Source of the DNA: a phage
Direction: 5' to 3' (one strand)
Length of the DNA: 64,000 bases
NCBI GenBank assembly: GCA_025677605.1
Contig: GCA_025677605.1_4110.1
Shown here: piece by piece, positions 3,802 to 64,000 of the stretch
Position numbering within the stretch: the stretch's first letter is position 1
Layout: the number at the start of each line of letters is the position of its first letter
Program-made: the position numbers and the translations under genes
Notes under the pieces: generated by a model
Database searches by the model: none
Told to the model about the DNA's origin: nothing
The model's input: the letters and a program-made list of their open reading frames with translations, nothing else

Positions 3802-4355
3802 TGGATTGCCTTAATATGTTCAATCATTGCCTTGGAGTTAGTACTCATGTACTCAAATATATCATCATTCATGAGTTCTGTCAAGTTCAATTCAACCGTA
3901 CATCCATCTGGTAAGTTCTTCTGACAGAACGGAGCCAGTACTGCACCGTACAGTACATACGGATCATCAATAATTAAACTCTTCTGGAAGCAATCACAAT
4001 CCATATCTTCTTCATTATCGAAGTAAGTACTGATATCTATTGCAGTACTATCTTTACACATCAACTCTACATCACCTTTTTTAATTACTACACGCTTTGT
4101 CTTGGTATTGCGTAATCGGGTGTATTCTTTTATGTGTCGTTGTTGTGTATTGATTTCAATGATATCTTTGTGGTTGTACGTTATTGTGAAGTGCATATCA
4201 TTATTCAAATCACCACTCAGAAAAAAATTAAGATCTCTTAGTACAGTGTGATTGACTTTAATGTATTCACCTTCACGAATTAAACTCAGTGCAGCTACAC
4301 AATCTTCAATAAACTTCTCAAGGAACTTCCCTCTATAGTAAAGACTATATTTCAT
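3795..4355 (-). CDS. Family A paralog, unknown function
   Basis: 186-aa ORF; motif DCDCFQKSLI. Confidence 0.7.
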   Translation of the reverse strand: MKYSLYYRGKFLEKFIEDCVAALSLIREGEYIKVNHTVLRDLNFFLSGDLNNDMHFTITYNHKDIIEINTQQRHIKEYTRLRNTKTKRVVIKKGDVELMCKDSTAIDISTYFDNEEDMDCDCFQKSLIIDDPYVLYGAVLAPFCQKNLPDGCTVELNLTELMNDDIFEYMSTNSKAMIEHIKAIQC

Positions 4356-4930: not shown

Positions 4931-5480
4931 TTAATTCCTCCAATAATTCTTCTTGTGTTTCAGTACTTTCATTGTATAAATTATTGAAAGCGGAACACTC
5001 CCCACTACCAAGTTGCATTGATAGTTGATATACAAAATCAGCTTTAGCTATCATATCATAACCAGGAAGCAACGACAACTGGAAAAGATATGCTTCTCGC
5101 TCTTCTGGATTTTGTAGCTCAGGTGCAATATGAAGATATTCTTCATCATCATAATAATCATCGTACAAATTTCTGACGATTAATTCGTTAGTTTCTTTGA
5201 GTTTATTCACAGTAAGACTACAATCAGAAACTGAACCCAAAAATTTACTCTCTCTGCCTGATGCCACATAAGAAGCATCAACTGACCATATATTTTTGGT
5301 TTTATGTTGAATGCAGTGTTGTATTTGGATATTAGCATAACGATACAAAGTACTGCAATCAAAAACTAATCGGTACATTGGATTGTTGAAGTAATGAAAA
5401 ATATTCTCTGTTCTTTTTTGTTCATCTAACTTATGAGTAAGTTCTTCTAGTACTTTAAAAATATCAATTAGTGTTTTCAT
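4908..5480 (-). CDS. Family A paralog, unknown function
   Basis: 190-aa ORF; motif EAYLFQLSLL. Confidence 0.7.
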   Translation of the reverse strand: MKTLIDIFKVLEELTHKLDEQKRTENIFHYFNNPMYRLVFDCSTLYRYANIQIQHCIQHKTKNIWSVDASYVASGRESKFLGSVSDCSLTVNKLKETNELIVRNLYDDYYDDEEYLHIAPELQNPEEREAYLFQLSLLPGYDMIAKADFVYQLSMQLGSGECSAFNNLYNESTETQEELLEELNAFLKSL

Positions 5481-6018
5481 GTTCTTTTCTCGTTTGTGCG
5501 TAGTTTTTCAAGTCCTTGAGTAATACTACTAATTGATCATCAGTGAGTAATGATGCTGTTGCACTATATGACATATAATAATTATTGAGATTGAAATCAA
5601 ATTTATAGTTACGTGCTAAAGCTTCAATCGTAAGTGCATCAGTGATTAATTTATCGTGAGTTACAGAACTCTGGAAATTTTGTTCTTCTAAATTCTCAGT
5701 ACTGAACAACGCAATAGGATCATATGATGGTTCTTTGTAATCCACTGCCTCTTTCATTCGAGGATTACGTGAAATAAAAGCCCAAGAACTGTCATATGAA
5801 AAATCAACAACACAGTCTTCCTCATCACCTTCATGTGGGTAAACGCACAGAATAGTTTTATTTTCTTCTGTGAACATCTGCTGCGTTGCAATACCCTCTC
5901 CTGTGTATTCAATTTCATAATCGAAACCGATTCTTAATTTACGTCCCTGTGAATTACACGTTTCAAGAAGTTTTCCCAGTTCGTTGTAAATTTGTAAGAT
6001 TAATAGGTAATTGTCCAT
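5464..6018 (-). CDS. Family A paralog, unknown function
   Basis: Track ORF 5464..6075 trimmed to MDNYLL (GAGGA SD). The removed extension overlaps the terminator/promoter at 6047..6085. Motif EEQNFQSSVT. Confidence 0.65.
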   Translation of the reverse strand: MDNYLLILQIYNELGKLLETCNSQGRKLRIGFDYEIEYTGEGIATQQMFTEENKTILCVYPHEGDEEDCVVDFSYDSSWAFISRNPRMKEAVDYKEPSYDPIALFSTENLEEQNFQSSVTHDKLITDALTIEALARNYKFDFNLNNYYMSYSATASLLTDDQLVVLLKDLKNYAQTRKEHENTN

Positions 6019-6046
6019 ATGATATCCTCGGTTAAATAATATTAAA

Positions 6047-6085
6047 ATAATAGCAAAGAAAAAAGCCAGAGTCAATACCCTGGCT
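6047..6085 (-). promoter_or_regulatory. Terminator hairpin with embedded sigma70-type promoter
   Basis: Stem AGCCAG 6064..6069 / CTGGCT 6080..6085, followed on the minus strand by a U-tract. -35 TTGACT 6070..6075 lies in the loop; 17-bp spacer; -10 TATTAT 6047..6052. Confidence 0.6.
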
Positions 6086-6091
6086 TTAAAA

Positions 6092-7504
6092 TTATTTCAC
6101 GTTAAAAATCGAAGTGGCTTTTTGTAAAGCATGTACTTCAGACTGTTGATTGTCTACCATCATCATTGTGTCCTTGACATGCTCCGCATTTTGCTGTACT
6201 GAACGGTCCATCATATTAACACTCTCGGTAACCTGAAGGATTGCAATGCTTTGTTGTTCAGCCATTATAGCTAAATCATCAATGAACTGCAAGAGAGAAT
6301 CAACATTTTTTACAATAGAATCAATATCACTTGCAGTTTCGTTGATTTGTTCTATTCCTTGGTTGTTGTTTTTTACAGAGTTATCAACGATTTCTTTAAT
6401 TTCTTTACTACATGCATCACATTTCATTGCTAAGTTACGAACTTCCTGTGCAACAACAGAGAATCCACGTCCATGTTCACCCGCTTTAGCAGCCTCAATA
6501 CTGGCATTTAAAGAAAGAATATTAGTCTGGAAAGCAATAGTTTCTATATTTTTGAGTATAGCAACTATAGCATTAGAATCTTCTTTAATTCTATCCATCT
6601 GCTCTTTGCAATTATTAATACTTTCAATTGCATTAGTACTGGATTCTTTTGTAGTTTTAACCATACTTTTTGCAGTATTGGAGTTATCAGATGTATTTGC
6701 AGATGTAGCACTTAATTCTTCCATAGCAGCAGCGATTTGAGTAAGTGCCTGTCCTTGTGTTTCAGTTCTGAAAGCTAAATCATTACTTTTACTTTCGAGA
6801 TGATAGGAGTTGCTTTTCATTGACTGAACTGTAATTTGTACTTGTTCAATTGCCTCACGCATAGCTGATATTGTTTTACTAAAAGTCTGTGCAAATTCTG
6901 AGTTGAAATGATTATTTTGTATTTCTAAAGTAATATTGCCGTCTTCAGAATTCACCGAATGGGCAATTCGTTGAATTTCATCTGCTTCATTTGCATCTTT
7001 CTCCATAATATACGCAACGTACATCAGAACTATTGCCTGTACTACTACATATATTGCGTGCTCTATAATGTGCCATAACGAAATATGGTGAAAAGAAAAC
7101 ACGAATAATATTGGAATTCCAGCACCCTGTAACAATCCAAATAATAAATGATGTATAGCAATCAGTACTGAACCTGCTAATACACAACGCCAGTCACGCC
7201 ATACAATCAATAAACTTAAAAAGACAAAAACTGTAAAGTGCCATTCCACCATCCCTAAGCCAAGATGTATTAGTAACGCACTCCAGCACATCACATTTAT
7301 ACTTAACAACGTTCGAGTGAACGCATTACTTTCAACAAATAGTAAAGGAGTTAGCATTACTAATAATAAAACTGCACCGATTAGTGCAATAATAAAACTA
7401 CCATGAACAACACCGGAAACTAAAGTAACAGCAAATAAAGCCCCTATACAACATAGTACTAAATTATCGGCTTTTTTGCGTATATTTTCTAAATTACTTT
7501 TCAA
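6092..7504 (-). CDS. Methyl-accepting chemotaxis protein homolog (multi-TM N-terminus plus MCP signalling domain)
   Basis: 470 aa. About 5 hydrophobic helices in the first 170 aa. Contains the canonical MCP hairpin-tip signature [37 protein letters not shown]. Alignable by eye to E. coli Tsr. Confidence 0.9.
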
Positions 7505-8049
7505 CGTACTTCTCCATAATTTAAATTATCATCAATATATTTTTTTAATAACAAATGCATTTTCTCTAGTTCCTCTTGGCTTTTGGTAAGTAACTTGTCC
7601 ATAATTGTAATTTCATAATGATCTTCTAATAACCTAAGTAATTTATAACCCATTTCTAGCTTATTATAAGTTAATTGATCATATGACATAGCAGCCATGA
7701 ACATTTGTTCTTTGAAAGTGTTTGAATCAATTTTAGCTACAGCTAACTTCTCGTCATCTTCATAAGAATGTTTTACCAGTATCTTAGTGTAGCGTGATAC
7801 ATTATATAGACGAATTTCACTATCTCCGCGTAGAATTTCCATCTTGTATTCTTGTCTACGTTGTGTTGCATTAATGATCTTTACGACATAACCTAAACCA
7901 CTAATGAACAATGTAATATTAGAATATACTGATGGAGATTCTTTTGGGTTGATATTTAATTCACCTAACTCAAAATTAACAGTCTTATTATCAGGACTGT
8001 TTTTAAAAATATAAATCATGCATTCAATAATATTTACAATGCTATCCAT
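7501..8049 (-). CDS. Family A-like paralog (motif degenerate)
   Basis: 182-aa ORF; [11 protein letters not shown] at the motif position; ATGA overlap with the MCP gene. Confidence 0.6.
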
Positions 8050-8080: not shown

Positions 8081-8109
8081 ATTCTAACACTCTACATTAC
8101 TAATGTCAA
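8081..8109 (-). promoter_or_regulatory. sigma70-type promoter
   Basis: -35 TTGACA 8104..8109; 17 bp; -10 TAGAAT 8081..8086; reads into 7501..8049 and the MCP gene. Confidence 0.6.
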
Positions 8110-8117
8110 CCTATAAA

Positions 8118-8141
8118 CGAAAAAAGACCCATCAGGGTCTT
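8118..8141 (-). terminator. Rho-independent terminator
   Basis: AAGACCC-ATCA-GGGTCTT hairpin covering the stop codon of 8132..8683, then UUUUU on the minus strand. Confidence 0.6.
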
Positions 8142-8683
8142 TTAAATGCTCGTAAGTCTCTCAGAATGTTTGGTAGAGTGCCTTGTTCCATTACAGAATT
8201 CAGTACATTAAGATCCATTGTAAGATAGAAACCATCAGGGATGTAATCACGCACTAACTTATCCAACTCAATGATATCCATTGTTAACTGATCATATAGA
8301 GTACTGTACTGGAAAAGCACCCCATCGTCAACATTTAAATCTATTAAGTTATCACCGTGATTGCATTGGCAAAAGTTATTAGCAAGATTTTTATGTTTAA
8401 TGCTGCTTATGTACACATATGGATAACGTGTGAGTACACGATTCTGTGCCTCCGAACAACCATCTGCAATTTCTTCATCTGATAACTCAGGGTGCAAAAG
8501 AAACAATGAACTATCACTAATGTACAAAGTACCTATAGAACCGTTTTTATTATTACTGTGTCGAATATAACATGAACCAAGATTTGATATAGGTTTTATA
8601 TCTTGTAGTACAATAGGAAAAAAGTTAATAATAACTTTAGATAGATCTTTTAGTACTGGGTTTATTGTTAATGGTAGACTCAT
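8132..8683 (-). CDS. Family A paralog, unknown function
   Basis: 183-aa ORF; motif DGVLFQYSTL. Confidence 0.7.
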   Translation of the reverse strand: MSLPLTINPVLKDLSKVIINFFPIVLQDIKPISNLGSCYIRHSNNKNGSIGTLYISDSSLFLLHPELSDEEIADGCSEAQNRVLTRYPYVYISSIKHKNLANNFCQCNHGDNLIDLNVDDGVLFQYSTLYDQLTMDIIELDKLVRDYIPDGFYLTMDLNVLNSVMEQGTLPNILRDLRAFKRP

Positions 8684-13143: not shown

Positions 13144-13172
13144 ATTATATCATGCACAGAAGGAGGTGTCAA
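13144..13172 (-). promoter_or_regulatory. sigma70-type promoter
   Basis: -35 TTGACA 13167..13172 (overlaps the stop of the upstream gene); 17 bp; -10 TATAAT 13144..13149. Confidence 0.65.
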
Positions 13173-16704: not shown

Positions 16705-16732
16705 ATTGTAACACAGTACAGGCTCTTGTCAA
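16705..16732 (-). promoter_or_regulatory. sigma70-type promoter
   Basis: -35 TTGACA 16727..16732; 16 bp; -10 TACAAT 16705..16710. Confidence 0.55.
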
Positions 16733-21168: not shown

Positions 21169-21804
21169 TAACACAATCTCTTTTAACTTCAAAATGAAAT
21201 CTTCATATACTTTTATCTGAAAATGCGGACTCTGTGCACTGAAACTAAACCCAGGTTCAATCAATTTCTTGTACTCATTTGCATATTTGCACAACTTCAG
21301 GATTTCGGTAGGGTCCACCATATCCTTCTGTACTAAGGACATTTGAAAAAGCACTTCCTCTACACCCTCGTACTCTTGACCTGCAATGTAACATATGTCA
21401 TCGTCTAACGATAATGATATGAACGTCTTTGTACTTATTACATTACCATCTTTTGAAACACCATAATCTGCAACTGAATCCACAAAGGAATCCGGCTTAG
21501 ATGAACCTGCTATGTCGCAAATGTACTTGTCAATGTATGTGATGTTATTGTTGTTATCGAATATACCAAATGCTAATGACGTGTCAAATACTTCCCTGAA
21601 ACCAATTCTGTCACTACCGATAACTAAAACTAATTTACCACAGGATGCACTGTATCTGGATGCGGAATCAAATGGAATCTCCAATTTTGAATTCTCAGGG
21701 AAAATAGCATTGAACTTCTTTAGCATTTCAAACATATAAGGAACATGAGGCTCCATGAACTTCATCACCTCATACGGTGAAGCATTTCTGGGAAAATTAT
21801 GCAT
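21166..21804 (-). CDS. Family A paralog, unknown function
   Basis: 212 aa; motif VEEVLFQMSLV. Confidence 0.7.
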   Translation of the reverse strand: MHNFPRNASPYEVMKFMEPHVPYMFEMLKKFNAIFPENSKLEIPFDSASRYSASCGKLVLVIGSDRIGFREVFDTSLAFGIFDNNNNITYIDKYICDIAGSSKPDSFVDSVADYGVSKDGNVISTKTFISLSLDDDICYIAGQEYEGVEEVLFQMSLVQKDMVDPTEILKLCKYANEYKKLIEPGFSFSAQSPHFQIKVYEDFILKLKEIVL

Positions 21805-23246: not shown

Positions 23247-23535
23247 AATATTTCCTTTCCCATTCGGATACATGGGCATTAAAATTCATAACAGCTTTCT
23301 GTATCTTTTTTAATAATAACACATCATATCCACCTGTGTCAATCACTAATTGCTGTTGAAACAATTCTTCGTCGGATAATGTATTGAAATCTACAAAATA
23401 ATCTGTGACTTCGTTATCATTTAAATGTGCCATGTACCAACCTGAACTACATGAATAAATCAAATTCCAACCGTCTTCATCGCCTTCTAATTCAACATAA
23501 ATCATATCTTTTGTATAAAGCATTCTATACTTCAT
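23227..23535 (-). CDS. Family A paralog (short form)
   Basis: 102 aa; motif SDEELFQQQLV. Confidence 0.65.
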   Translation of the reverse strand: MKYRMLYTKDMIYVELEGDEDGWNLIYSCSSGWYMAHLNDNEVTDYFVDFNTLSDEELFQQQLVIDTGGYDVLLLKKIQKAVMNFNAHVSEWERKYYDLEVQ

Positions 23536-24624: not shown

Positions 24625-25013
24625 TTAATAGGGTATTCCGTTTCATTCACTACATACGACATAATCCATCCGTAATGGATAGGATGATATTTGTCTGAAT
24701 CAGGAATAAAATATAAAGCTGTACTGGGATTATAACTGAAGAAATCCCTCTCGTCAAATGTTAATCTGGCTAACTTAATTTTCCTTGGAATTGCATGAGG
24801 ACGAACTGCATTCTTTACACAGAATATACCATCTTTGTATTTTGGTTCGATAACACCCAATGCACTCTGGATTAACTCCTGAAAGACTAAATTGATTTGT
24901 GCAAATGAATCCTTGTTGTTATGCATTTCGTGCCATAAATCTCGTCTTGCATTTAACATCATTATTACTGGTCTAAGATCCTGTACTATTGTTAGATTCT
25001 GCATTGTATTCAT
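24612..25013 (-). CDS. Hypothetical protein
   Basis: 133-aa ORF, co-oriented. Confidence 0.55.
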   Translation of the reverse strand: MNTMQNLTIVQDLRPVIMMLNARRDLWHEMHNNKDSFAQINLVFQELIQSALGVIEPKYKDGIFCVKNAVRPHAIPRKIKLARLTFDERDFFSYNPSTALYFIPDSDKYHPIHYGWIMSYVVNETEYPIKWER

Positions 25014-26361: not shown

Positions 26362-26390
26362 ACTATAGCACTACAATAGAGTACTGTCAA
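26362..26390 (-). promoter_or_regulatory. sigma70-type promoter
   Basis: -35 TTGACA 26385..26390 (inside the 3' end of 26371..26601); 17 bp; -10 TATAGT 26362..26367. Confidence 0.55.
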
Positions 26391-28027: not shown

Positions 28028-28239
28028 AATCTTTGTGTTTTCCTCGACAGTAGGTACAGGTAACGTTCAGTGCATTGTTCTTGATAGTTTGTTCCTAATA
28101 AATGAACTAATTGTTGTTCAGCTATAGAAAGCTGTTTATCTTCATAACAAGCGTATCGTTGTTTCCTATGGTATTCTTTATTGATAACATCAAGGATGAT
28201 AACACCGTATTCGTCATCTGTCAAGTGTTTCATGTGCAT
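28024..28239 (-). CDS. Family B small protein
   Basis: 71 aa; LLGTNYQEQCT. Confidence 0.65.
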   Translation of the reverse strand: MHMKHLTDDEYGVIILDVINKEYHRKQRYACYEDKQLSIAEQQLVHLLGTNYQEQCTERYLYLLSRKTQRL

Positions 28240-31349: not shown

Positions 31350-31378
31350 ATCATACCCCATATGAGGCATGATGTCAA
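31350..31378 (-). promoter_or_regulatory. sigma70-type promoter of the family B operon
   Basis: -35 TTGACA 31373..31378; 17 bp; -10 TATGAT 31350..31355. Confidence 0.6.
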
Positions 31379-51534: not shown

Positions 51535-52044
51535 TTAAGAGTACTTTTTAAAATATTTTATTATTGTTTCCTTTGTAACTCCAAATTTTCTACCCAATGC
51601 AGTAGCACCATAAACGCGATCCCCTGGCTTATAATGTGTTATAATGTATTGTGTATCGTCGGCGGTCAAACGTGCCTTATCGTTATCATATCCCGTTAAA
51701 CGTGGTTTAACTAATCCAGAATCAAACGCATGTTTAACATTTTCGCTATTGGTTGCCCATTCCAACGCGGTGTAATGATTGTTCGCCTTTCCCTTTAAAT
51801 GATTAACTTGAACTATCTTATAGTGAGTTTTTGCAGCCCATGCGATTTGTTCCGCAGTAGGCGGTGATAGATAGTTATTAGCAACCAATCTATGAACAAA
51901 ATGATCCCCATCGTTTAACGATACTCTTTGATAACCTTTTTCGGTTATACGTGGTTTAAGATTGGTTGTAGTGCCAATCTTTCTAACATCCCCATACTCG
52001 CTAACTTCATATAAATTATTTTCTTTTAGTACCTTCCATTGCAT
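51535..52044 (-). CDS. HNH homing endonuclease
   Basis: 169 aa. N-terminal YEVSEYGDVR and GYQRVSL..HRLVA (NUMOD4/HNH_3-type). VNHLKGKANNHYTALEWATNSEN is the HNH core. C-terminal HTH-like GRKFGVTKETIIKY. Confidence 0.8.
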   Translation of the reverse strand: MQWKVLKENNLYEVSEYGDVRKIGTTTNLKPRITEKGYQRVSLNDGDHFVHRLVANNYLSPPTAEQIAWAAKTHYKIVQVNHLKGKANNHYTALEWATNSENVKHAFDSGLVKPRLTGYDNDKARLTADDTQYIITHYKPGDRVYGATALGRKFGVTKETIIKYFKKYS

Positions 52045-52118
52045 ACACGATCCCCTGATGTAACATTTATTTGATACTATTATATCATAAAAATATGTTC
52101 CATCTCATAAAATAGTAC

Positions 52119-52146
52119 TTGCATTCTGTACGGCATAGCGTATAAT
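52119..52146 (+). promoter_or_regulatory. Plus-strand sigma70-type promoter followed by the R core
   Basis: -35 TTGCAT 52119..52124; 16 bp; -10 TATAAT 52141..52146; downstream GCC-loop-GGC then CTAACCCACAGGGTGCCGAG. Confidence 0.5.
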
Positions 52147-52334
52147 TACTACATAAGCCGGAAACAAGGCACTAACCCACAGGGTGCCGAGATCCGCCCA
52201 AAATTCATATAATTTAAAAAGGATACACTCCCGCACCCTAGCAGGTCAAAGCACTTTCTCAGTACTGAATCATAGTACCATAGTACGCCCCAGGATGGCA
52301 AGCAAATTAATTAAAACTTTTTACACTTAGGCTA

Positions 52335-52363
52335 TTGCTTTTATAATTCAGTACTGCTATAAT
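52335..52363 (+). promoter_or_regulatory. Plus-strand sigma70-type promoter followed by the R core
   Basis: -35 TTGCTT 52335..52340; 17 bp; -10 TATAAT 52358..52363; downstream AGTC-loop-GACT then CTAGCCCACCGGGTGCATAG. Confidence 0.5.
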
Positions 52364-52459
52364 TATTTCATCAAGTCGAGAAAGACTCTAGCCCACCGGG
52401 TGCATAGTTACGCCCAAAATTCAGTACTAGATTATTTTTAAAAATATTCATCCAGGCGG

Positions 52460-52540
52460 TTGACATACCCCGCTAAAACTGGGATAATGTTTCCAGATTC
52501 AGAAAAATCTAACTCCAGATACTGCGGGGAAACCATCCCC
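52460..52540 (+). promoter_or_regulatory. Plus-strand sigma70-type promoter plus leader hairpin firing into the repeat array
   Basis: -35 TTGACA 52460..52465; 17 bp; -10 GATAAT 52483..52488; hairpin GGGGA-AACCA-TCCCC 52526..52540; no ORF follows. Confidence 0.55.
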
Positions 52541-52587
52541 ACGCGGTAGGGGAACTATTGGAAAAAACAAAATAAAAATTTTGATTT

Positions 52588-52765
52588 AGCCGTCTATACA
52601 TCCAGACGTGTAACCATCTAGCCATCTAGCCGTCCAAACGTCTAGCAGTACAGCCATCTAGAAATCTAGCCATCTAGAAATCTAGCCATCCAGCCGTCTA
52701 GAGGGATAGCCATCTTTACTTCCAGACTTCTGGAGGGCTAGACATCTCTACGTCCAAAATCCACC
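52588..52765. repeat. Iteron-like array of about 15-18 degenerate 8-9-bp units (consensus ATCTAGCC / GTCTAGAN)
   Basis: For example CCATCTAGCCATCTAGCCGTCCAAACGTCTAGCAG...CCATCTAGAAATCTAGCCATCTAGAAATCTAGCCATCCAGCCGTCTAGAG. Confidence 0.75.
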
Positions 52766-53118
52766 CAGGGTTACTACGCCCAAAATCCGTCAGTACTATA
52801 CCATAGATCTATCTTTAAGAAGGGAGTATTCAGTACTGCCATCATAGTCCTCACTATGTTACCCTAGGAGGATGAAGACTATCATGTAGTACTGAATACT
52901 TTTAAGGGGAATATCATCACATTGCGTGATGCATTATATATTAGATTAATATCAGTACTGCTACCATTCTGTTAATAACAGTACTGTTTATATTACGAAA
53001 AAAGAGGTTGTCAAAGATGAACCACTGCATAGGAGGATTCAATCTCTTCTGTACTGTCTCACGACAGGAGGGTTAAGGCTCTGAATTGTTTGCGGCAATT
53101 CATCACTCTATGTAGAAC

Positions 53119-53146
53119 ATTATACAGTACTGAATCATAATGTCAA
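53119..53146 (-). promoter_or_regulatory. sigma70-type promoter with no downstream ORF
   Basis: -35 TTGACA 53141..53146; 16 bp; -10 TATAAT 53119..53124; more than 1 kb downstream lacks any credible ORF. Confidence 0.5.
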
Positions 53147-53591
53147 TAGATTTCTTCCATTATTCAGTACTGAAAACATATCTTCTGTATCTCTTCAAAA
53201 CTCATTATATCCCACTAATCCTATATGTCCCAATGTAAATTTCAACTTTCGAAGATCCAACTTTTATTTCATAGGTACTCCAAAATTTTTACGATCCAGA
53301 TTTACGATGGAGTACTAACCAACTTTTTGCTGGAGCCTCAAGGGGTATTCGGAATTTTCCCCAATGGGTATTCGGGATTTTTGACGAAGGGTAAATTGAA
53401 CTTTTTTGAATAGGTGATTGGGAGTTTTCAGTACTGGTCATTCCGTGATTACTTTTGATTGGAAATGATTTGTTTTGCAATTGTTCAGTACTGTAAAATT
53501 ATGTAAATTTTGGGCGACTTCATTTGCCTACTTAGTGGGATATCAGTACTGAATCATTCCTGCACTCTAGTACTCAATACTCTTCACTACA

Positions 53592-53651
53592 ATGATTATA
53601 AATGATTACTTAAATGTTTATATATGATTACTTATGACTACCTATGATTAC
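53592..53651. repeat. Five phased copies of ATGAT/CTAC/T
   Basis: Copies start at 53592, 53602, 53624, 53634 and 53644 (10-bp register within each group). Confidence 0.7.
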
Positions 53652-53691
53652 GGGGTTTAGCCTGGGGAGAATCCTAGTGATCGCATTTGTC

Positions 53692-53731
53692 CAGGCTGAA
53701 TTTTAACATATGCAACATATGTTAAAGCCTG
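53692..53731. repeat. Large palindrome/hairpin
   Basis: Perfect 11-bp arms TTTAACATATG 53702..53712 and CATATGTTAAA 53716..53726, extended by CAGGCT / AGCCTG; TGTATAAT immediately follows on the plus strand. Confidence 0.75.
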
Positions 53732-53776
53732 TATAATGCTTGCACTACGGAGCTTCCCCTAGCTATATGTGTTTAA

Positions 53777-53974
53777 TTACTTCCTATATATAAGCATTAA
53801 GATATAGTAGTACTGATTGTACTGTACATTCTCTAGAACAGGAGAAGGGTCTATTGCTATATTAGTACATTTATTAAATTCATATCGAGTCATTGGTAGA
53901 GGGATTAGAGCGTTAATCCATACTTGTTCATTCTCTTTGAGTTTACTTATATAGAATTCTTTATGGTCATTCAT
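53777..53974 (-). CDS. Family C tiny protein
   Basis: Track ORF 53777..54085 trimmed to MNDHKEFY (abuts the upstream stop); ends LMLIYRK. Confidence 0.55.
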   Translation of the reverse strand: MNDHKEFYISKLKENEQVWINALIPLPMTRYEFNKCTNIAIDPSPVLENVQYNQYYYILMLIYRK

Positions 53975-53975
53975 A

Positions 53976-54167
53976 TTAGTGTCTGTATATAAGTAATAGT
54001 AAGAATACGTACTGCACCTGTTCATCTTTAGTATTGAGTACTGTACGTATTGCGTCCTTAAACAAGAATATAGAACTTGGGTCATGGGAATTTAAAGGGA
54101 TTACGGGGACGGCATCTTTGTAGTTCTCTTTAACAAATTGTTTATAGTATTCTTTATAATTATCCAT
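53976..54167 (-). CDS. Family C tiny protein
   Basis: 63 aa; MDNYKEYY...LLLLIYRH. Confidence 0.6.
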   Translation of the reverse strand: MDNYKEYYKQFVKENYKDAVPVIPLNSHDPSSIFLFKDAIRTVLNTKDEQVQYVFLLLLIYRH

Positions 54168-57673: not shown

Positions 57674-57709
57674 TTGATTAAATATAGTATAATGAATAAA
57701 GGAGGAATT
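57674..57709 (+). promoter_or_regulatory. Conserved cassette leader (TATAAT box without -35, plus SD)
   Basis: TTGATTAAATATAGTATAATGAATAAAGGAGGAATT; TATAAT 57688..57693; repeated 5 times in front of the beta-propeller genes. Confidence 0.5.
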
Positions 57710-58606
57710 ATGTTACCTTTTGTTAGAATGTTTAAGTACGGGAATGTAGGTCCATTACCTGGCCCAAATGGTGGAGTACGAACACCATTTACTACAACAC
57801 CCGTACCTTCAGCACGAAATAACTTTGGTTATACGTATGATGCGGAAAGTAATATTGCTTATATATTTGGTGGTATACAGAATGCGGTGCAGACGGATAA
57901 TCAGTTATGGAGTTTTAATTTAACTACAAGAACGTGGTCACAATTAGCCAATGCACCTGTATCTACATTTGGTAGTGCGTTATGTGCTTATCAGGGAAAA
58001 ATATATTTGTTTGGTGGTTCAGGTAATAGTAGTAATAATTTTTATGTATATAATATAAGTACAAATACATGGATTCTGAACACTAACAGTATTGGGAAGC
58101 CTAGTCAACTGGCGTATAGTAAGATGATTACTGCTGGGGATAAGATATATTTGTGGGGTTCGCCTACTAATAATTCGTTATACAGTTATACTCCAAGTAC
58201 TAATACATGGTCATCATTAGGTACAAGTGATGGAACAAATAACAATGGAGGTGGTGATATGTGTACGGATGGTACTTACATATATATTACTGGTCAAGGT
58301 ACTAGTACTGCACAAAAATATCATATACAAAGTGCGGTGTGGTCTAACATAGCACCAGTTGGTGGTAATAACCCTAGTAAAATATGTTACAGTACATATG
58401 ATAAAAATATATATGCAGTGTCGTATGGTGCATTAAATTTATTGAGATACGATGCAGAAGAAGACATATGGATTCCCTTAGCGGTTAATACTACTTTGAG
58501 TAGTAGTACTGGTGCGTTATTTGGTTCTAAGAATAGTGCTGAGATATTTTATGTACTTGGTTTTGACAATGGCACTCGTGTTAATACGCAGTATGTTTTT
58601 AAATAA
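57710..58606 (+). CDS. Kelch-repeat beta-propeller protein with conserved MLPFVRM N-terminus
   Basis: Track ORF trimmed to MLPFVRMFKYGN (AAAGGAGG SD). 5-6 Kelch-like units, e.g. IYIFGG..LWSFNLTTRTW, KIYLFGG..YVYNISTNTW, KIYLWG..YSYTPSTNTW. Confidence 0.75.
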   Translation: MLPFVRMFKYGNVGPLPGPNGGVRTPFTTTPVPSARNNFGYTYDAESNIAYIFGGIQNAVQTDNQLWSFNLTTRTWSQLANAPVSTFGSALCAYQGKIYLFGGSGNSSNNFYVYNISTNTWILNTNSIGKPSQLAYSKMITAGDKIYLWGSPTNNSLYSYTPSTNTWSSLGTSDGTNNNGGGDMCTDGTYIYITGQGTSTAQKYHIQSAVWSNIAPVGGNNPSKICYSTYDKNIYAVSYGALNLLRYDAEEDIWIPLAVNTTLSSSTGALFGSKNSAEIFYVLGFDNGTRVNTQYVFK

Positions 58607-58618
58607 TTTGGAGGAATT

Positions 58619-59761
58619 ATGTTACCTTTTGTTAGAATGTTAGAGTACGGGAATATTGCACCAGAACCAAAACCTCTATTTAAAAATAGATTACAAGCAA
58701 ATTATAATACTCGTTTTTATTTGCATGTTAATGGTGACTTGTACTGGTATGGTTCATCTTCATTTGGACAAGGTGGTAATGGTTCATTACAATCATCCAC
58801 CGTATGGACCCGTGTGAATAATAATATTGAACGTTACTGGGGTGGTGTTCTTGGTTCCATTGCCATTAAGAATGATGGAACTATTTGGTTCACAGGTGCT
58901 AGTATAGTAATGCCACAAATCGGAACAAATACAAATGGGGTTTGGATTGATGTAACCCAGTACTTCACTGATTTTGGTGTCAGTGCTGATGATATTGATG
59001 GTATTGCTGTTGGGCAGAATTTGCGTGTATTTTTAAAAAATGGAAAATGGTTCTACTGTGGTGCTGGCGAAGGTGGTGTATTTGGTAACGCGTCAACAGC
59101 TAATGTCACATCGTTCAGATACAGCACTATAGAAAATGTTAAAAGTTATGGCTGTTCTTTGCTCAGTACTGGGTTAGTACTTGATGATGGCTCCTATTGG
59201 TATGCAGGAAATACTGTTGCTCCTGGTAGTACAAAAACATCAAATATATTAAGTTTTACAAAAGACAATACGATCACCAATGCTATACAAGCTGTAAATA
59301 CATACCGTACTTCATATATATTTCTTAATGATGGTTCAGTGAAGGTTGCTTCACCAAATGCATATGGTCAAGCTGGTGTAGGTACAGTATCAGCAGTACC
59401 AATGAGTACATTAATTCCCAATTTATCATTCCAAGGTGAAATAGAGTTGGTGGGTGGTTTATCCAACAACGAAGGGAATGGATGTGTTGTTAAAAATAAT
59501 AATAAGTTATATACTTGTGGTCGAAATACCTATGGTGCATGTGGTGTTAATCAAACATCCGAAAATATACTAACTTTCACCGAAATGGTTCTTGATGCAT
59601 TAGAAGGAAGACGAATTTCAGGCTTCGTAATTGATAATTTCTATTCAATGATAATTGATGAAAATAACAATTTGTATATGAGTGGTTTACCTGAACTTGG
59701 AAATGTTCCAGCCGTTAGAGTACCAACCAGAGTTCCTGATTCACTTCTACCGTGGAAATAA
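58619..59761 (+). CDS. RCC1-like repeat beta-propeller protein with MLPFVRM N-terminus
   Basis: 380 aa; GGAGG SD. Repeats such as LYWYGSSSFGQGGNG, WFYCGAGEGGVFGN, SPNAYGQAGVG, LYTCGRNTYGACGVN. Confidence 0.7.
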   Translation: MLPFVRMLEYGNIAPEPKPLFKNRLQANYNTRFYLHVNGDLYWYGSSSFGQGGNGSLQSSTVWTRVNNNIERYWGGVLGSIAIKNDGTIWFTGASIVMPQIGTNTNGVWIDVTQYFTDFGVSADDIDGIAVGQNLRVFLKNGKWFYCGAGEGGVFGNASTANVTSFRYSTIENVKSYGCSLLSTGLVLDDGSYWYAGNTVAPGSTKTSNILSFTKDNTITNAIQAVNTYRTSYIFLNDGSVKVASPNAYGQAGVGTVSAVPMSTLIPNLSFQGEIELVGGLSNNEGNGCVVKNNNKLYTCGRNTYGACGVNQTSENILTFTEMVLDALEGRRISGFVIDNFYSMIIDENNNLYMSGLPELGNVPAVRVPTRVPDSLLPWK

Positions 59762-59768
59762 TATAATA

Positions 59769-59797
59769 GCCAGTACTCTGTACTGGCTTTTCTTATT
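59769..59797 (+). terminator. Rho-independent terminator
   Basis: GCCAGTAC-TCT-GTACTGGC followed by TTTTCTTATTT. Confidence 0.75.
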
Positions 59798-59833
59798 TGT
59801 ATTAAATATAGTATAATGAATAAAGGAGGAATT
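59798..59833 (+). promoter_or_regulatory. Conserved cassette leader
   Basis: TATAAT 59812..59817; AAAGGAGG SD. Confidence 0.5.
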
Positions 59834-60943
59834 ATGTTACCTTTTGTTAGAATGTTAGAGTATGGGAATATTGTACCCGGTCCTAAAAATATAATTAAAG
59901 TTGGTGCTTCTACACAAGGTCAATTCTTATTGACTGATTCACATGATTTATATTACATAGGTAGAAATCAAGGTGGTGAATCTGGAAATGGTAATAACAA
60001 CACGGTATCTTCATGGATATTAGTAAGTTCAGATGTTTCTAATTTTTTCGTGGGTGGTCGTACACTTGTTATTATTAAAAATGATAATACGATATGGACA
60101 TCGGGTGAAACGTACTGGTTCTCATCTTCTACAACTACTTCTTACAGTACTATATTAGTTGAAAGGACTAATTGGTTTACCAATGCTATACCAGTGAGTG
60201 AAATTGCTAATATTGTATGTACAAATGGTTTAATATTTGTACTTAGCACTAGTTCAGTACTCTATGGTGCAGGAGATAATGGATATCGTGGTTCTTTAGG
60301 TATTGGCTCATCATCGATTTACACATTAACTCAATGTGCTACTAACGTGCGTAAAGTAATGACTAATGCAAATGATAGTATGTATATTACATTAGATAAT
60401 AAGCTATATAGTTCTGGATGGAATAGCAGTGGGCAGCATGGTACAGGGGACCAAACACAAATTAACACTTGGGGATTACGTAGTTCTGGTGTAATCGATG
60501 CAGCGATTGGTGGTAATGCATTTAATTACTATAATGGTACATCATATTTCGTATGTGGTCAAACTCCAAACTTTCTTAGTTCAGGTACGACTACATTCCG
60601 TGCAGTTCCTGTAAGTACTTTGCCTAATAGTTCTCCGTTGTTTATGACGAATTCACCTGCATTAAATACTGCTACACAAATGGTAATTACTAGTACATAT
60701 CAGAAGGGTGTTGGGGCGAACCGTGGTTTGGGATTAAACAATTCTCAAACTGGTGCTATATATAGTGCTACAAATTTACAATTACCCGTTGAAGTTAGTG
60801 AGATTAGGGATGTTCTTTTTAGTGATGGTTTGACTTCAATATTAACCAAAGATGGAGATGTATATAGTACTGGAACGTATTACGCCATTCCTGGTGCAAG
60901 CGAGGATGTTGCAGTCTTTACTAAAATTGATTTACCAAAATAA
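59834..60943 (+). CDS. RCC1-like repeat beta-propeller protein with MLPFVRM N-terminus
   Basis: Track ORF trimmed to MLPFVRMLEYGN. Repeats LYYIGRNQGGESGNG, LYGAGDNGYRGSLGIG, LYSSGWNSSGQHGTGD. Confidence 0.7.
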   Translation: MLPFVRMLEYGNIVPGPKNIIKVGASTQGQFLLTDSHDLYYIGRNQGGESGNGNNNTVSSWILVSSDVSNFFVGGRTLVIIKNDNTIWTSGETYWFSSSTTTSYSTILVERTNWFTNAIPVSEIANIVCTNGLIFVLSTSSVLYGAGDNGYRGSLGIGSSSIYTLTQCATNVRKVMTNANDSMYITLDNKLYSSGWNSSGQHGTGDQTQINTWGLRSSGVIDAAIGGNAFNYYNGTSYFVCGQTPNFLSSGTTTFRAVPVSTLPNSSPLFMTNSPALNTATQMVITSTYQKGVGANRGLGLNNSQTGAIYSATNLQLPVEVSEIRDVLFSDGLTSILTKDGDVYSTGTYYAIPGASEDVAVFTKIDLPK

Positions 60944-60949
60944 CATAAT

Positions 60950-60977
60950 GCCAGTACTTGATACTGGCTTTCTTATT
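60950..60977 (+). terminator. Rho-independent terminator
   Basis: GCCAGTA-CTTGA-TACTGGC followed by TTTCTTATTT. Confidence 0.75.
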
Positions 60978-61014
60978 TGTATTAAATATAGTATAATGAA
61001 TAAAGGAGGAATAT
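60978..61014 (+). promoter_or_regulatory. Conserved cassette leader
   Basis: TATAAT 60992..60997; AAAGGAGG SD. Confidence 0.5.
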
Positions 61015-62194
61015 ATGTTACCTTTTGTTAGATTGTTTGATTATGGGAATGTTGCCCCTATTAAAGATACTGTTGTTAAAATTAATAGTGATGAAAATTC
61101 AATAAGCGTATTATACAGTGACGGGTCATTATATATGCGTGGACGGAAACCAATCAGCAAAAATGGGAGTTACTGGTTCATCTTTTTTAGATAGATGGGT
61201 TTTATGTCCTTATAGTGTTGATGATTTCTGGAGTTCTTTATATTGTACTATAATTAGAACAAAACAAGGGGAATTGTACTATAGTGGAACTAACTCAGTT
61301 TTTGGTATATCATCTTCTGTTTCAACATGGACTCGTTGTGAATCATATTTTGGATCTATCTCGGCGAGTTCTATAAAAGATATAAAAATAACATCAACAA
61401 CCAGTACTAACAATTCTATGCTAATACTCACAAGTGACGGTCAGTTATATGGTATAGGCATGAATGGTGCAAGTGAATTGGGTACAGCAACTGCACCAAT
61501 TACATCTCCACTCTTAATTGACACTAGTGTAACTGCAATTGCATCTAGCGAAATGAGCAGAAACTTTCACTATATAAAAGATGGTATATATTATCGTTGT
61601 GGTGAGAATACTTTTTATCAATTAGGGACAGGTGATAATAATCCAATTACGACTTTTACTGCATTGAATCTTGCAAGTTCTCAAGTAATTGCAGTACAAG
61701 CTACACGATGGGTAACACGTTTGATTGTTCAAAGTAGTACATCTGCTTTGTCTTTAATGGCGGCTGGTTGGAACACACAGTTGACTATAGGTGGTTCTGA
61801 AAATACTGGTATAATAAGGTCATCATTTACTACAAATCCCTATACCGATATAACAGCAAATTCATTCGATAAACTTTCACCAGTATCCTATGTTAATGCA
61901 ATAAAATCCAGTACTAACATTATTAATACGAATGGTAAGGGATATAATTCTAATGGTGCTGGTTTAGGCCGCAACGCATTCTCTGGGAATTATGGTTCAA
62001 TATTACCAATAGAATTCTTTGATGATAGTGTTGACTTATCACATGTTGAGTGGTTTGGTACGATTGGTAATGGTTCAGTATCGGTAGTTAGTATAGGTGA
62101 GGATTTATACTGGACTGGAAACCCTGGGTATTTTACTGAACAAGGTGAGACTGGATATATATATAAATTCAAAAAGTGCATTCCTTTTAGATAA
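61015..62194 (+). pseudogene. Frameshifted RCC1-like beta-propeller paralog
   Basis: MLPFVRLFDYGN...LYSDGSLYMRG is in frame 1 (stop at 61192..61194). The homologous continuation GNQSAKMGVTG... is in the +1 frame (track ORF 61118..62194). One extra nucleotide near 61144. Confidence 0.6.
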
Positions 62195-62202
62195 TCACAA
62201 TA

Positions 62203-62229
62203 CCAGTACTTGATACTGGCTTTTCTTTT
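62203..62229 (+). terminator. Rho-independent terminator
   Basis: CCAGTA-CTTGA-TACTGG followed by CTTTTCTTTTTT. Confidence 0.7.
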
Positions 62230-62265
62230 TTGATTAAATATAGTATAATGAATAAAGGAGGAAAT
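62230..62265 (+). promoter_or_regulatory. Conserved cassette leader
   Basis: TATAAT 62244..62249; AAAGGAGG SD. Confidence 0.5.
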
Positions 62266-63456
62266 ATGTTACCTTTTGTTAGAATGTTTGATTACGGGAA
62301 TATAACACCAGTCCCTATTCAAATTAAGAAAATATCACCAACTGATTTAGATGTTGTCGTTCTTTATACGGATGGTCAACTATACGCACGTGGAAATAAT
62401 AGTTTTGGGAAGTTTGGTAGAGGAAATAGTAATGCAGTAAAGTCATGGACCTTAATTAGAGAAAATGTTAAAGATTTCTGGGTGTCACAAGGAACTTTGT
62501 TAGTACAAGATAATGACTTAAATTATTTTTATTGTGGATACGGTGATCATGTTGGTTTACCAACTAGTACTACAACATTTTTAAGTTATAACCAATATAT
62601 TGAAAATTTATACACACAAAGTTCAAGTACTTCAATTAAACAGATGTATGCAGGCACTACGTGGTTTACTTTCTTAATGGATAATAATACAATATGGAGT
62701 ACTGGTTGGAGTGGGGCTAGACAATTCGCTGATGGTACTGGAAAAACTCAACAAATAACAGATGGATCATTTGTAAAAGCTGTCACGCCTAATGTTGATA
62801 TTGCACAAATACAGTCAACAAATAACTGTGTAATGTTTTTTGATACACAAAATAATTTATATATTGGTGGTGGTACGTCAGGTATAAGTACCAGTACCAC
62901 ATGGACACCATTTAATGAATATACTTTATATAAACCAAGTACAACATACACAAAAACGTTACAATACACTGGATGCTCAAGTGGTGCAGTCAGTGCTTTG
63001 GTTGAGAATCCAAGTACTGGTGCACGTCAGTTTCTAGTTGGTGGTTTAGCGAGTAATGGTGCATGGGGTAACAATACCACAACCAGTTCGGCACTTGCTG
63101 TATTAGGGAGCAATAGTACGACATTACCAACTGGAACTTTGTATTCAATTCATACAGGATACCCAACACAATCTAGTATACTAGTTACGAGTACTGGTGT
63201 ATATGCAACTGGTTTAAATGCGAGTAGTTATGCTGGTTCGTTGGGTGTTGGTTCTAATGTTACTATTGGTAGATTTACTATATGTCCAATGCCAGCAGAA
63301 ATATCATATTCTATGTATGATAAAATAAAAATATATCGCGGTTCGTATCGTACTTTTCTAACTGCTGATATGAAAAATATATATTCAACCGGAACGTATG
63401 ATGATGGTGGTCCTAGTACAAATAGATATGTTCTGGATACACCTAGACAATTGTAA
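62266..63456 (+). CDS. RCC1-like repeat beta-propeller protein with MLPFVRM N-terminus
   Basis: Track ORF trimmed to MLPFVRMFDYGN. Repeats LYARGNNSFGKFGRGN, IWSTGWSGARQFADGTG, GGLASNGAWGN. Confidence 0.65.
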   Translation: MLPFVRMFDYGNITPVPIQIKKISPTDLDVVVLYTDGQLYARGNNSFGKFGRGNSNAVKSWTLIRENVKDFWVSQGTLLVQDNDLNYFYCGYGDHVGLPTSTTTFLSYNQYIENLYTQSSSTSIKQMYAGTTWFTFLMDNNTIWSTGWSGARQFADGTGKTQQITDGSFVKAVTPNVDIAQIQSTNNCVMFFDTQNNLYIGGGTSGISTSTTWTPFNEYTLYKPSTTYTKTLQYTGCSSGAVSALVENPSTGARQFLVGGLASNGAWGNNTTTSSALAVLGSNSTTLPTGTLYSIHTGYPTQSSILVTSTGVYATGLNASSYAGSLGVGSNVTIGRFTICPMPAEISYSMYDKIKIYRGSYRTFLTADMKNIYSTGTYDDGGPSTNRYVLDTPRQL

Positions 63457-63463
63457 TAATTTC

Positions 63464-63491
63464 GCCAGTACTTGATACTGGCTTTTCTTTT
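63464..63491 (+). terminator. Rho-independent terminator
   Basis: GCCAGTA-CTTGA-TACTGGC followed by TTTTCTTTTTT. Confidence 0.75.
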
Positions 63492-63527
63492 TTGATTAAA
63501 TATAGTATAATGAATAAAGGAGGAAAT
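63492..63527 (+). promoter_or_regulatory. Conserved cassette leader
   Basis: TATAAT 63506..63511; AAAGGAGG SD. Confidence 0.5.
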
Positions 63528-64000
63528 ATGTTACCTTTTGTAAGAATGTTGGATTATGGAAATAAAGTTTTACCATATATTCCCAATTTTGTTAAATTAG
63601 TTACACCATCGTGTGGTTATTCATATACATGTACAATGATGCTTGATAAAAATGGTTCAATATGGGCTATAGGTTTTCAGAATGGTGGAATTTTTGGTTT
63701 AGGTCATACTAATCCAGTAACTGAATGGACAAAAATATATAGCAATGTTAAAGATTTTTGGTGCAGTACAATGAACGCTTTTTGTCTAATACGCACAAAT
63801 GATGATAGATTCTTTTATAGTGGTTTAGATAAATGGCTGGGTAATAATACAACCAATAATATAACAACATTCACAGAATGTACAAGCTATTTTACACAAT
63901 TTGGAATTTCAAGAATTAAAGATATATACGTGGGTTATGATTATGCTTTGATTTTAGGTACAGATAATAGTTTATATTTGTTAGGTGATAATACTGGTTA
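63528..64000 (+). CDS. Beta-propeller paralog with MLPFVRM N-terminus (partial; runs off the window)
   Basis: Hand translation MLPFVRMLDYGNKVLPYIPNF...IWAIGFQNGGIFGLGHTN... is open to the window end; not in the track because no stop is reached. Confidence 0.65.
   Translation, partial: MLPFVRMLDYGNKVLPYIPNFVKLVTPSCGYSYTCTMMLDKNGSIWAIGFQNGGIFGLGHTNPVTEWTKIYSNVKDFWCSTMNAFCLIRTNDDRFFYSGLDKWLGNNTTNNITTFTECTSYFTQFGISRIKDIYVGYDYALILGTDNSLYLLGDNTG

Follow-up and report, generated by a model that had tools for sequence, protein, structure and literature searches.

The window analysed here is a 64,000-nucleotide stretch of DNA (contig GCA_025677605.1_4110.1) from an Asteriusvirus-like jumbo phage of Escherichia coli. 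Bases 1-25000 are 98.6% identical at the DNA level to Escherichia phage A4 (ON286972, 355.5 kb, genus Asteriusvirus), which bears out the phage origin that an earlier, sequence-only reading had assigned to this DNA. The same reading proposed that the 470 amino acid (aa) open reading frame (ORF) at 6092..7504 encodes a methyl-accepting chemotaxis protein (MCP). Indeed, the protein, referred to below as the phage MCP, matches the Pfam MCPsignal model PF00015 over residues 281-434 with 127.5 bits (cutoff 34.6; E=6.3e-37), and the hairpin tip quoted in that reading corresponds to residues 323-359 of a cytoplasmic region that can be aligned with the chemoreceptor Tsr. The gene and the parts of its product, as delineated by comparison with Tsr and by an AlphaFold2 (AF2) model, are as follows.

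6092..7504, minus strand: complete MCP gene, 470 codons plus stop, TTG start
7001..7504, minus strand: predicted six-helix membrane sensor, residues 1-168 (AF2 model, charge bias and family invariants)
6845..7000, minus strand: HAMP-sized helix-connector-helix linker, residues 169-220 (AF2 shape; no HAMP profile score)
6095..6844, minus strand: 36H-class antiparallel coiled-coil hairpin, residues 221-470, equivalent to Tsr 269-518
6704..6733, minus strand: methylation-consensus site, residues 258-267, the sole consensus match, with E262/E263 equivalent to Tsr E310/Q311
6428..6538, minus strand: hairpin tip, residues 323-359, the kinase-control and CheA/CheW-binding region by Tsr equivalence

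A signalling hairpin of the same length as that of Tsr

A family profile aligned with Tsr 240-518 without gaps (E ~1e-100), phage residues 192-470 being equivalent to that segment. Pairwise BLASTP against Tsr gave a constant offset of 48 (phage = Tsr - 48), with compensating +3/-3 gaps and no net length change, while positions 195-514 of the NCBIfam Tar model align to phage residues 150-468. This unchanged length places the phage MCP in the 36H class, of which all E. coli MCPs are members; the naming of the class reportedly goes back to Alexander and Zhulin in 2007. In the AF2 model, the hairpin helices span residues 203-340 and 342-464, with predicted local distance difference test (pLDDT) values of ~85-90.

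Identity with Tsr is 33% over Tsr 268-518, 51% over 350-430 and 73% (30/41) over 370-410. The tip columns are invariant across 16 homologs, with E343, K340 and F348 of the phage MCP equivalent to Tsr E391, R388 and F396, respectively. The E385/R388-type salt-bridge pair of Tsr is kept as E337/K340, and the Tsr-388 position is thus a lysine in the phage MCP, as opposed to an arginine in every bacterial homolog aligned. In E. coli, the Tsr R388K mutant adapted like the wild type, and charged or bulky replacements at the E385/R388-type residue pair resulted in locked or shifted outputs (PMC6681711).

The methylation consensus [ASTG][ASTG]xx[EQ][EQ]xx[ASTG][ASTG] occurs once in the phage MCP versus four times in the Tsr fragment, and the equivalents of Tsr E492/E493 are K444/D445. 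The C-terminal linker and its NWETF pentapeptide are absent, as the phage MCP ends in ATSIFNVK at the equivalent of Tsr 518.

A six-helix membrane sensor and its family

The N-terminal region had been described as containing about five transmembrane (TM) helices; the AF2 model and the positive-inside charge pattern instead indicate six, at residues 4-33, 37-56, 61-81, 86-102, 105-127 and 143-168+. The full-length model has a pLDDT of 84, and the N-terminal domain a pLDDT of 90.6 and a predicted template modelling (pTM) score of 0.86. With seven Lys and Arg residues in the cytoplasmic loops and none in the periplasmic ones, the protein is predicted to adopt an N-in, C-in topology. The periplasmic loops are only 3, 5 and 15 residues long and so leave no room for a periplasmic domain, in line with the earlier view that a periplasmic ligand-binding domain is missing. 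Given its six TM helices and its cytoplasmic C-terminal signalling domain, the modelled protein has the topology of a class III (membrane-embedded sensor) chemoreceptor, a category said to stem from the Zhulin/Lacal classification.

The membrane domain contains nine histidines, every one of them in the periplasmic half. H89, H118, H119, H149, D13, F90, F93, F122 and Q126 are invariant among homologs of 27-40% identity, and these nine residues are also retained in all nine phage variants. Overall, the phage MCP keeps 15 of the 15 family-invariant positions of the membrane domain, and the nine variants differ at five positions of the sensor, the other 163 of its 168 residues being unchanged.

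This domain is not covered by any Pfam or NCBIfam model, a Foldseek search against the PDB returned no significant match for it, and no viral structure resembling it was found in BFVD. Its sequence profile, searched against 1.84 billion proteins, retrieved 5,595 cluster representatives at E<=1e-3 (clusters at 50% identity), 473 of them at <=1e-30, and matched the phage MCP cluster at E=3.7e-55. The family is marked by invariant ExHF, HH and H motifs and is almost always fused to an MCP (10 of the 10 relatives checked, some of which carry additional HAMP domains). It is a candidate for a new domain definition.

The segment that joins the sensor to the hairpin had been read as lacking a HAMP domain, which holds at the level of sequence profiles. 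The whole protein did not match the HAMP models PF00672 / PF18947, nor did any of 13 linker segments at E values up to 10, a linker profile found no match among HAMP structures in the PDB, and the precomputed Pfam domains of the full-length homologs comprise MCPsignal only. Assignment of the linker to HAMP by sequence was therefore rejected. A HAMP-sized helix-connector-helix nevertheless does follow TM6: in the AF2 monomer model, this helix extends to residue 184, a connector spans residues 185-202 and a further helix starts at residue 203. This segment falls on the HAMP region of Tar/Tsr when aligned with NCBIfam and PDB profiles.

Origin, distribution and maintenance of the gene

Full-length homologs with 36-40% identity to the phage MCP are present in Enterobacter, Pseudocitrobacter, Siccibacter and Pantoea, and more distant ones (27-32%) in Cupriavidus, Paraburkholderia and Aquabacterium. 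Whether built from the entire protein or from either domain alone, neighbour-joining trees attach the phage MCP by a long branch to the Enterobacterales, as their sister (bootstrap support of 97/100 for the two together and of 100/100 for Enterobacterales to the exclusion of the phage). As the placement is the same for the whole protein and for each domain, the gene arrived as one piece, and the sister position at 36-40% identity argues against recent capture from any sampled genus. GC content at third codon positions (GC3) is 0.25 in the MCP gene, 0.23-0.30 in neighbouring phage genes and 0.785 in the Enterobacter soli homolog. Identity of <=40%, phylogeny and codon usage together led us to reject recent host capture; between that origin and a long-standing phage lineage, which the sequence-only reading had set side by side, the tree points to the latter.

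The protein cluster has ten members, nine of which are full length (470 aa) and at least 99% identical. The ratio of nonsynonymous to synonymous substitution rates (dN/dS) among three DNA copies is 0.064-0.080. These values, together with the GC3, run counter to a degraded host fragment, a possibility that had been raised for this gene. Purifying selection and phage-like codon usage instead indicate that the MCP gene is an old, maintained acquisition from a donor related to Enterobacterales.

The database entry for the exact protein of the window, HCQ0858630.1, is labelled 'hypothetical protein [Escherichia coli]' and comes from a contig of 351,638 bp, and several MCP variants lie, with the same phage neighbours, on 351-359 kb contigs filed as 'Escherichia coli' isolates. 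Entire A4-like genomes, as the jumbo-phage size of these contigs shows, are thus recovered in isolate assemblies, through either a carrier state or contamination, and mislabelled as bacterial.

Searches by tblastn and of phage records found the MCP gene and its two flanking genes in no phage record besides A4, and scans of IMG/VR and of JGI metagenomes revealed no further MCP copies. The other Asteriusvirus genomes are devoid of the gene, and plasmids gave only generic MCP matches and no close relative. E. coli itself appears to lack such a sensor, since blastn with the DNA of the Enterobacter N-domain, a DNA-level search sensitive to ~65-70% identity, matched none of 5,426 complete E. coli genomes. 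The chemoreceptors known in E. coli K-12 are only Tsr, Tar, Trg, Tap and Aer.

Gene structure, coupled partner and expression signals

The MCP gene overlaps the ORF upstream of it, as the sequence-only reading had noted, although by TTGA rather than ATGA: its TTG start codon (7504..7502) overlaps the TGA stop codon of that ORF (7503..7501). TTG is the start in three of three DNA copies of the gene, and it is the only in-frame start that retains the family-invariant D13. The promoter and terminator that had been proposed for the gene were both recovered as consensus matches, and are listed here with the other features of the unit.

7512..7515, minus strand: GGAG Shine-Dalgarno sequence, 7 nucleotides upstream of the TTG start
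7501..8049, minus strand: 182-aa coupled partner ORF, TTGA overlap with the MCP gene; PHROG phrog_36809, unknown function
8109..8081, minus strand: sigma70-type promoter-like site, TTGACA-17-TAGAAT with extended -10 TG, 11/12; consensus match only
8143..8122, minus strand: intrinsic-terminator-like hairpin ending the upstream transcription unit, 9 bp stem, then a T tract; consensus match only
6087..6062, minus strand: intrinsic-terminator-like hairpin after the MCP gene, 11 bp stem then TTTTCTTT, 5 nucleotides past the stop codon; consensus match

The position of the 8143..8122 terminator just upstream of the 8109..8081 promoter suggests that the partner ORF and the MCP gene make up a delimited unit of two genes. 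The partner ORF is known only from A4-like phages and has no matches in Pfam, NCBIfam or PADLOC. Its pairing with the MCP is kept in every copy seen, including loci L004 and L007, and no relative of it adjoins the Enterobacter homolog in the one bacterial locus checked. At the other end of the unit, the next promoter-like site (6075..6047) has its -35 hexamer, TTGACT at 6075, within the 6087..6062 hairpin. The segment 6047..6087 is thereby a compact terminator/promoter junction, whereas at 8081..8143 a terminator and a promoter adjoin without overlap.

Sigma70 matches of at least 11/12 number ten between 3 and 32 kb, all ten of them on the coding strand, and one is a perfect 12/12 with an extended -10. 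Their consistent orientation argues that they are real, host-type promoters; at a threshold of at least 9/12, the total equals the shuffled expectation. Besides 8081..8109, the ten comprise the following.

3856..3884, 13144..13172, 16705..16732, 21560..21587 and 23313..23342, minus strand: promoter-like sites of at least 11/12, on the coding strand
24729..24757, 26362..26390, 28196..28224 and 31350..31378, minus strand: further promoter-like sites of at least 11/12, on the coding strand

Genomic neighbourhood

The remaining Asteriusvirus genomes align with the window only from ~14,000 onwards; its first ~14 kb, within which the MCP gene lies, are lineage-specific. The counterpart in phage A4, A4_379, is 98.6% identical, has the same flanks and carries the GenBank label 'methyl-accepting chemotaxis protein' (ON286972). 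The paper on phage A4 makes no mention of chemotaxis (PMC9355613), and we found no publication tying Asteriusvirus or phage A4 to chemotaxis.

An iterative hidden Markov model (HMM) search delineated a very divergent paralog superfamily of 37 minus-strand ORFs between 35 and 26946, of which BLASTP alone connects only 14. Its members measure ~110-210 aa and share a common [LF]FQxS-type motif. Both genes that flank the MCP unit (5464..6075 and 8132..8683) were recruited to it, and neither of these two paralogs has a Pfam match; the PHROG matches of one paralog and of one neighbouring non-member are of 'unknown function'. The MCP gene is therefore located inside a lineage-specific, hypervariable paralog array, as had been proposed; the coupled partner, in contrast, was not recruited by the iterative HMM, and its earlier placement in a 'family A' was unconfirmed. 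The array resembles a region transcribed by the host RNA polymerase (early-type). The only PADLOC matches, to DruC and JetC, were weak coiled-coil ones and were dismissed.

Towards its other end, the window holds a second tandem paralog family (57674..64000, plus strand), consisting of six consecutive ORFs of ~310-410 aa that are mutually similar in an all-against-all BLASTP comparison, the last of which runs off the window. The GC skew turns from negative to positive at ~52000-54000, which coincides with the switch from minus- to plus-strand genes and suggests a boundary between divergent transcription/replication modules.

A possible role in the infected cell

From its sequence, the phage MCP is very probably functional as an MCP, and it somewhat more likely does than does not couple to the chemotaxis arrays of the host. 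The best overall explanation, to which we give about an even chance, is an intact MCP that joins the host arrays and imposes a sustained swimming bias on the infected cell. The gene would be transcribed by host RNA polymerase, probably early in infection, and its product would insert N-in/C-in into the inner membrane, dimerise, and take its place in mixed trimers-of-dimers and in the CheA/CheW arrays of the host, where it would control CheA. The hairpin length, which is that of Tsr and Tar, and the 30/41 identity at the tip make both mixed trimers and array entry possible. The input would come from the outer-leaflet histidine cluster and might be of the metal, heme/redox or pH type. Because only one methylation consensus is present and the NWETF tether is missing, adaptation should be weak, and weak adaptation would produce a sustained bias instead of a transient response.

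That such coupling benefits the phage through the behaviour of the infected cell is doubtful. It is unlikely that the strictly lytic jumbo phage gives E. coli, via CheA/CheW, a sensory input that is new to this host (a metal, redox or pH-type signal read by the membrane-embedded histidine cluster), such that the infected cell navigates for the benefit of the phage; if it does, navigation might be directed, for example, toward host-rich niches or ones that favour the long latent period of a jumbo phage. The sequence-only reading had proposed array joining, a dominant-negative receptor and a signalling scaffold; these are not separable by sequence, and the 36H length, the tip and the intact sensor make the first of them feasible.

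Several considerations weigh against array joining with a swimming bias. Expression, membrane insertion, array entry and an effect on motility are all predicted, and the promoter and terminators are putative, being consensus matches only. The gene belongs to a very narrow lineage (at least 99% identical) and was found neither in other Asteriusvirus genomes nor in the IMG/VR and JGI data; it is thus dispensable for this type of phage. The ligand or cofactor of the sensor is conjectural, and the apparent absence of such a sensor from E. coli rests on DNA-level blastn (sensitivity ~65-70% identity). The co-transcribed 182-aa protein hints at a phage-specific partner. Finally, a locked or non-canonical output is an equally possible reading of the degenerate methylation sites and of the R388K-type tip.

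This last point leads to a receptor that poisons the arrays: it would enter them and lock the kinase ON or OFF, thereby abolishing chemotaxis or fixing the flagellar rotation bias, to the end, for instance, of immobilising or dispersing infected cells, and would convey no sensed signal. The single methylation consensus (four in Tsr) and the missing NWETF tail, with the weak adaptation they imply, fit such a role. So does the lysine at the Tsr-R388 position, where all bacterial homologs aligned have arginine, given that charged or bulky replacements at the salt-bridge pair lock or shift the output (PMC6681711). However, Tsr R388K itself behaved near wild type in the same study, and the degenerate C-arm methylation region also occurs in the Enterobacterales homologs, which makes it a family trait rather than a phage-specific one. 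Furthermore, dN/dS is low gene-wide, and a sensor that keeps 15/15 invariants and is unchanged at 163/168 residues in nine variants would be unexpected if the tip alone mattered. We therefore regard a locked receptor as unlikely. Quite unlikely, too, is a function outside chemotaxis and unconnected to CheA/CheW, in which the protein, repurposed as a sensor or scaffold in the membrane, would send signals to phage proteins (e.g. the 182-aa product) or report the state of the membrane or of the proton motive force. It would account for the TTGA coupling to a phage-only ORF, preserved in every copy seen, and for the location in an array of early-type genes of unknown function. It sits poorly with a CheA/CheW-binding, trimer-forming tip that is the most conserved part of the protein, 30/41 identical to Tsr and matching the family invariants, with a hairpin of exactly 36H length, and with the lack of a partner homolog next to the bacterial homolog checked.

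The restriction of the gene to A4-like phages, its absence from other Asteriusvirus genomes and the lineage-specific nature of the first ~14 kb would also suit a neutral passenger, i.e. an acquired bacterial gene hitch-hiking in a hypervariable region of one phage sublineage. We consider this improbable: dN/dS is 0.06-0.08, nine variants are free of frameshifts and truncations, the gene has its own ribosome-binding site within a promoter/terminator-bounded unit, and the ameliorated codon usage and long separate branch speak for long survival in a compact, AT-rich genome. An artefact, in the form of a decayed piece of host DNA or of bacterial sequence wrongly assembled into a phage contig, might be suspected because several copies are filed under 'Escherichia coli' and some 'phage' records with MCP matches are bacterial contigs. 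Yet the 'E. coli' records are contigs of jumbo-phage size (351-359 kb) with the same phage neighbours, the isolated phage A4 has the same flanks, GC3 is 0.25 and the sensor has no match in E. coli chromosomes, so that this explanation is effectively refuted.

The idea of chemotaxis directed by the phage is directly testable, as no signalling pathway in biology is better characterised than that of E. coli chemotaxis, and a positive result would provide a clean case in which a lytic phage reprograms the behaviour of its host and not its metabolism. Should no role emerge, the gene would stand as a well-documented instance of a bacterial signalling gene that a jumbo phage has kept over the long term in its hypervariable region.

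Comparison with known chemoreceptors and membrane sensors

Tsr and Tar have a periplasmic four-helix bundle and two TM helices, whereas the phage MCP is predicted to have six TM helices and no periplasmic domain. Relative to these receptors, it has lost three of the four consensus methylation sites of Tsr, and its linker has no HAMP score. Aer, Trg and Tap also have no NWETF tether and function in mixed arrays with Tsr and Tar, and this missing tether is a trait that the phage MCP has in common with them. Aer signals independently of methylation and senses via a cytoplasmic FAD-PAS domain. No Aer-type FAD-binding PAS domain was matched by Pfam in the phage MCP, and an Aer-like energy sensor was rejected on this ground.

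The closest relatives are the six-TM MCPs of Enterobacterales (Enterobacter soli/wuhouensis/chuandaensis, Pseudocitrobacter, Siccibacter and Pantoea), which have the same end-to-end architecture at 94-99% coverage and share with the phage MCP the invariant histidine cluster and the degenerate C-arm methylation region. They differ from it in a ~13-residue N-terminal extension, and their chromosomal context is unrelated to the phage locus; we found no described function for them in the literature. In Enterobacter soli (GCA_964208575.1), the homolog is followed by two convergent ORFs of 148 and 134 aa without Pfam match (locus L002 7449..8301), an ExbB/ExbD pair lies ~1.4 kb upstream with one short-chain dehydrogenase/reductase (SDR) gene between, and a Tar-type MCP lies ~4.6 kb downstream; this locus and that of the phage have no conserved partner in common. 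The compact phage MCP and its Enterobacter relatives offer a convenient entry to the 5,595-cluster sensor family with its four invariant membrane histidines.

Outside this family, the closest described architecture, compared by published description only, is that of the archaeal HtrVIII of Halobacterium salinarum, a six-TM aerotaxis transducer with proposed heme binding, an MCP domain and no extracellular domain (PMC13401364). Heme binding by the phage MCP would be pure conjecture. The six-TM domains of the cyclases AC9 (6r3q), AC5 (8sl3) and M. tuberculosis Rv1625c/Cya (7yzi), and that of the P. aeruginosa diguanylate cyclase ImcA (8wcn), are 10-13% identical to the phage sensor, with no sequence-level link, and their output domains differ from the signalling domain of the phage MCP.

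As to other phages, the sequence-only reading had called chemoreceptor genes rare, and only 52 of 50,697 phage records match chemoreceptors; the gene is, however, not unique, as A4_379 was already annotated as an MCP and another jumbo phage has a full-length one. The identification of the MCP in GenBank and the existence of rare phage-borne MCPs are thus already known; what is new is the 36H host compatibility, the six-TM histidine-cluster sensor family, the sister-group phylogeny and the evidence of long-term selective maintenance. 'Acinetobacter phage MD-2021a' (CAKLQH020000002.1, locus L006), filed as a phage, is a bacterial chromosome contig with response regulators, cheW, an MCP and cheA, and AFYI01000003.1 and AGRM0100000x bear Salmonella enterica organism names within the phage collection. 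Bacterial contigs filed in this way inflate the apparent count of 'phage' MCPs.

Genes for MCP, CheR and CheY have been noted in Nitrosospira phages (bioRxiv 10.64898/2026.05.02.722434), and phrog_8572 matches residues 140-469 of the phage MCP. The other jumbo phage, unrelated to the present one and likewise infecting a motile host, is the Vibrio phage vB_VmeM-Yong XC31 (MK308674.1, 290 kb), which encodes QAX96201.1 (locus L005, 1187..3019), a protein of 610 aa labelled 'hypothetical protein' that is a full dCache_1-HAMP-MCPsignal chemoreceptor (MCPsignal E=1.3e-39). None of these other phage-borne MCPs has an assigned function. The similarity of QAX96201.1 and phrog_8572 to the phage MCP (~33%) is restricted to the signalling domain, which marks them as independent acquisitions. 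The Vibrio protein would sense through a periplasmic dCache domain, as opposed to the six-TM membrane bundle of the phage MCP, and if the proposed role in the infected cell is true, these two different receptors would make chemoreceptor capture a recurrent strategy of jumbo phages.

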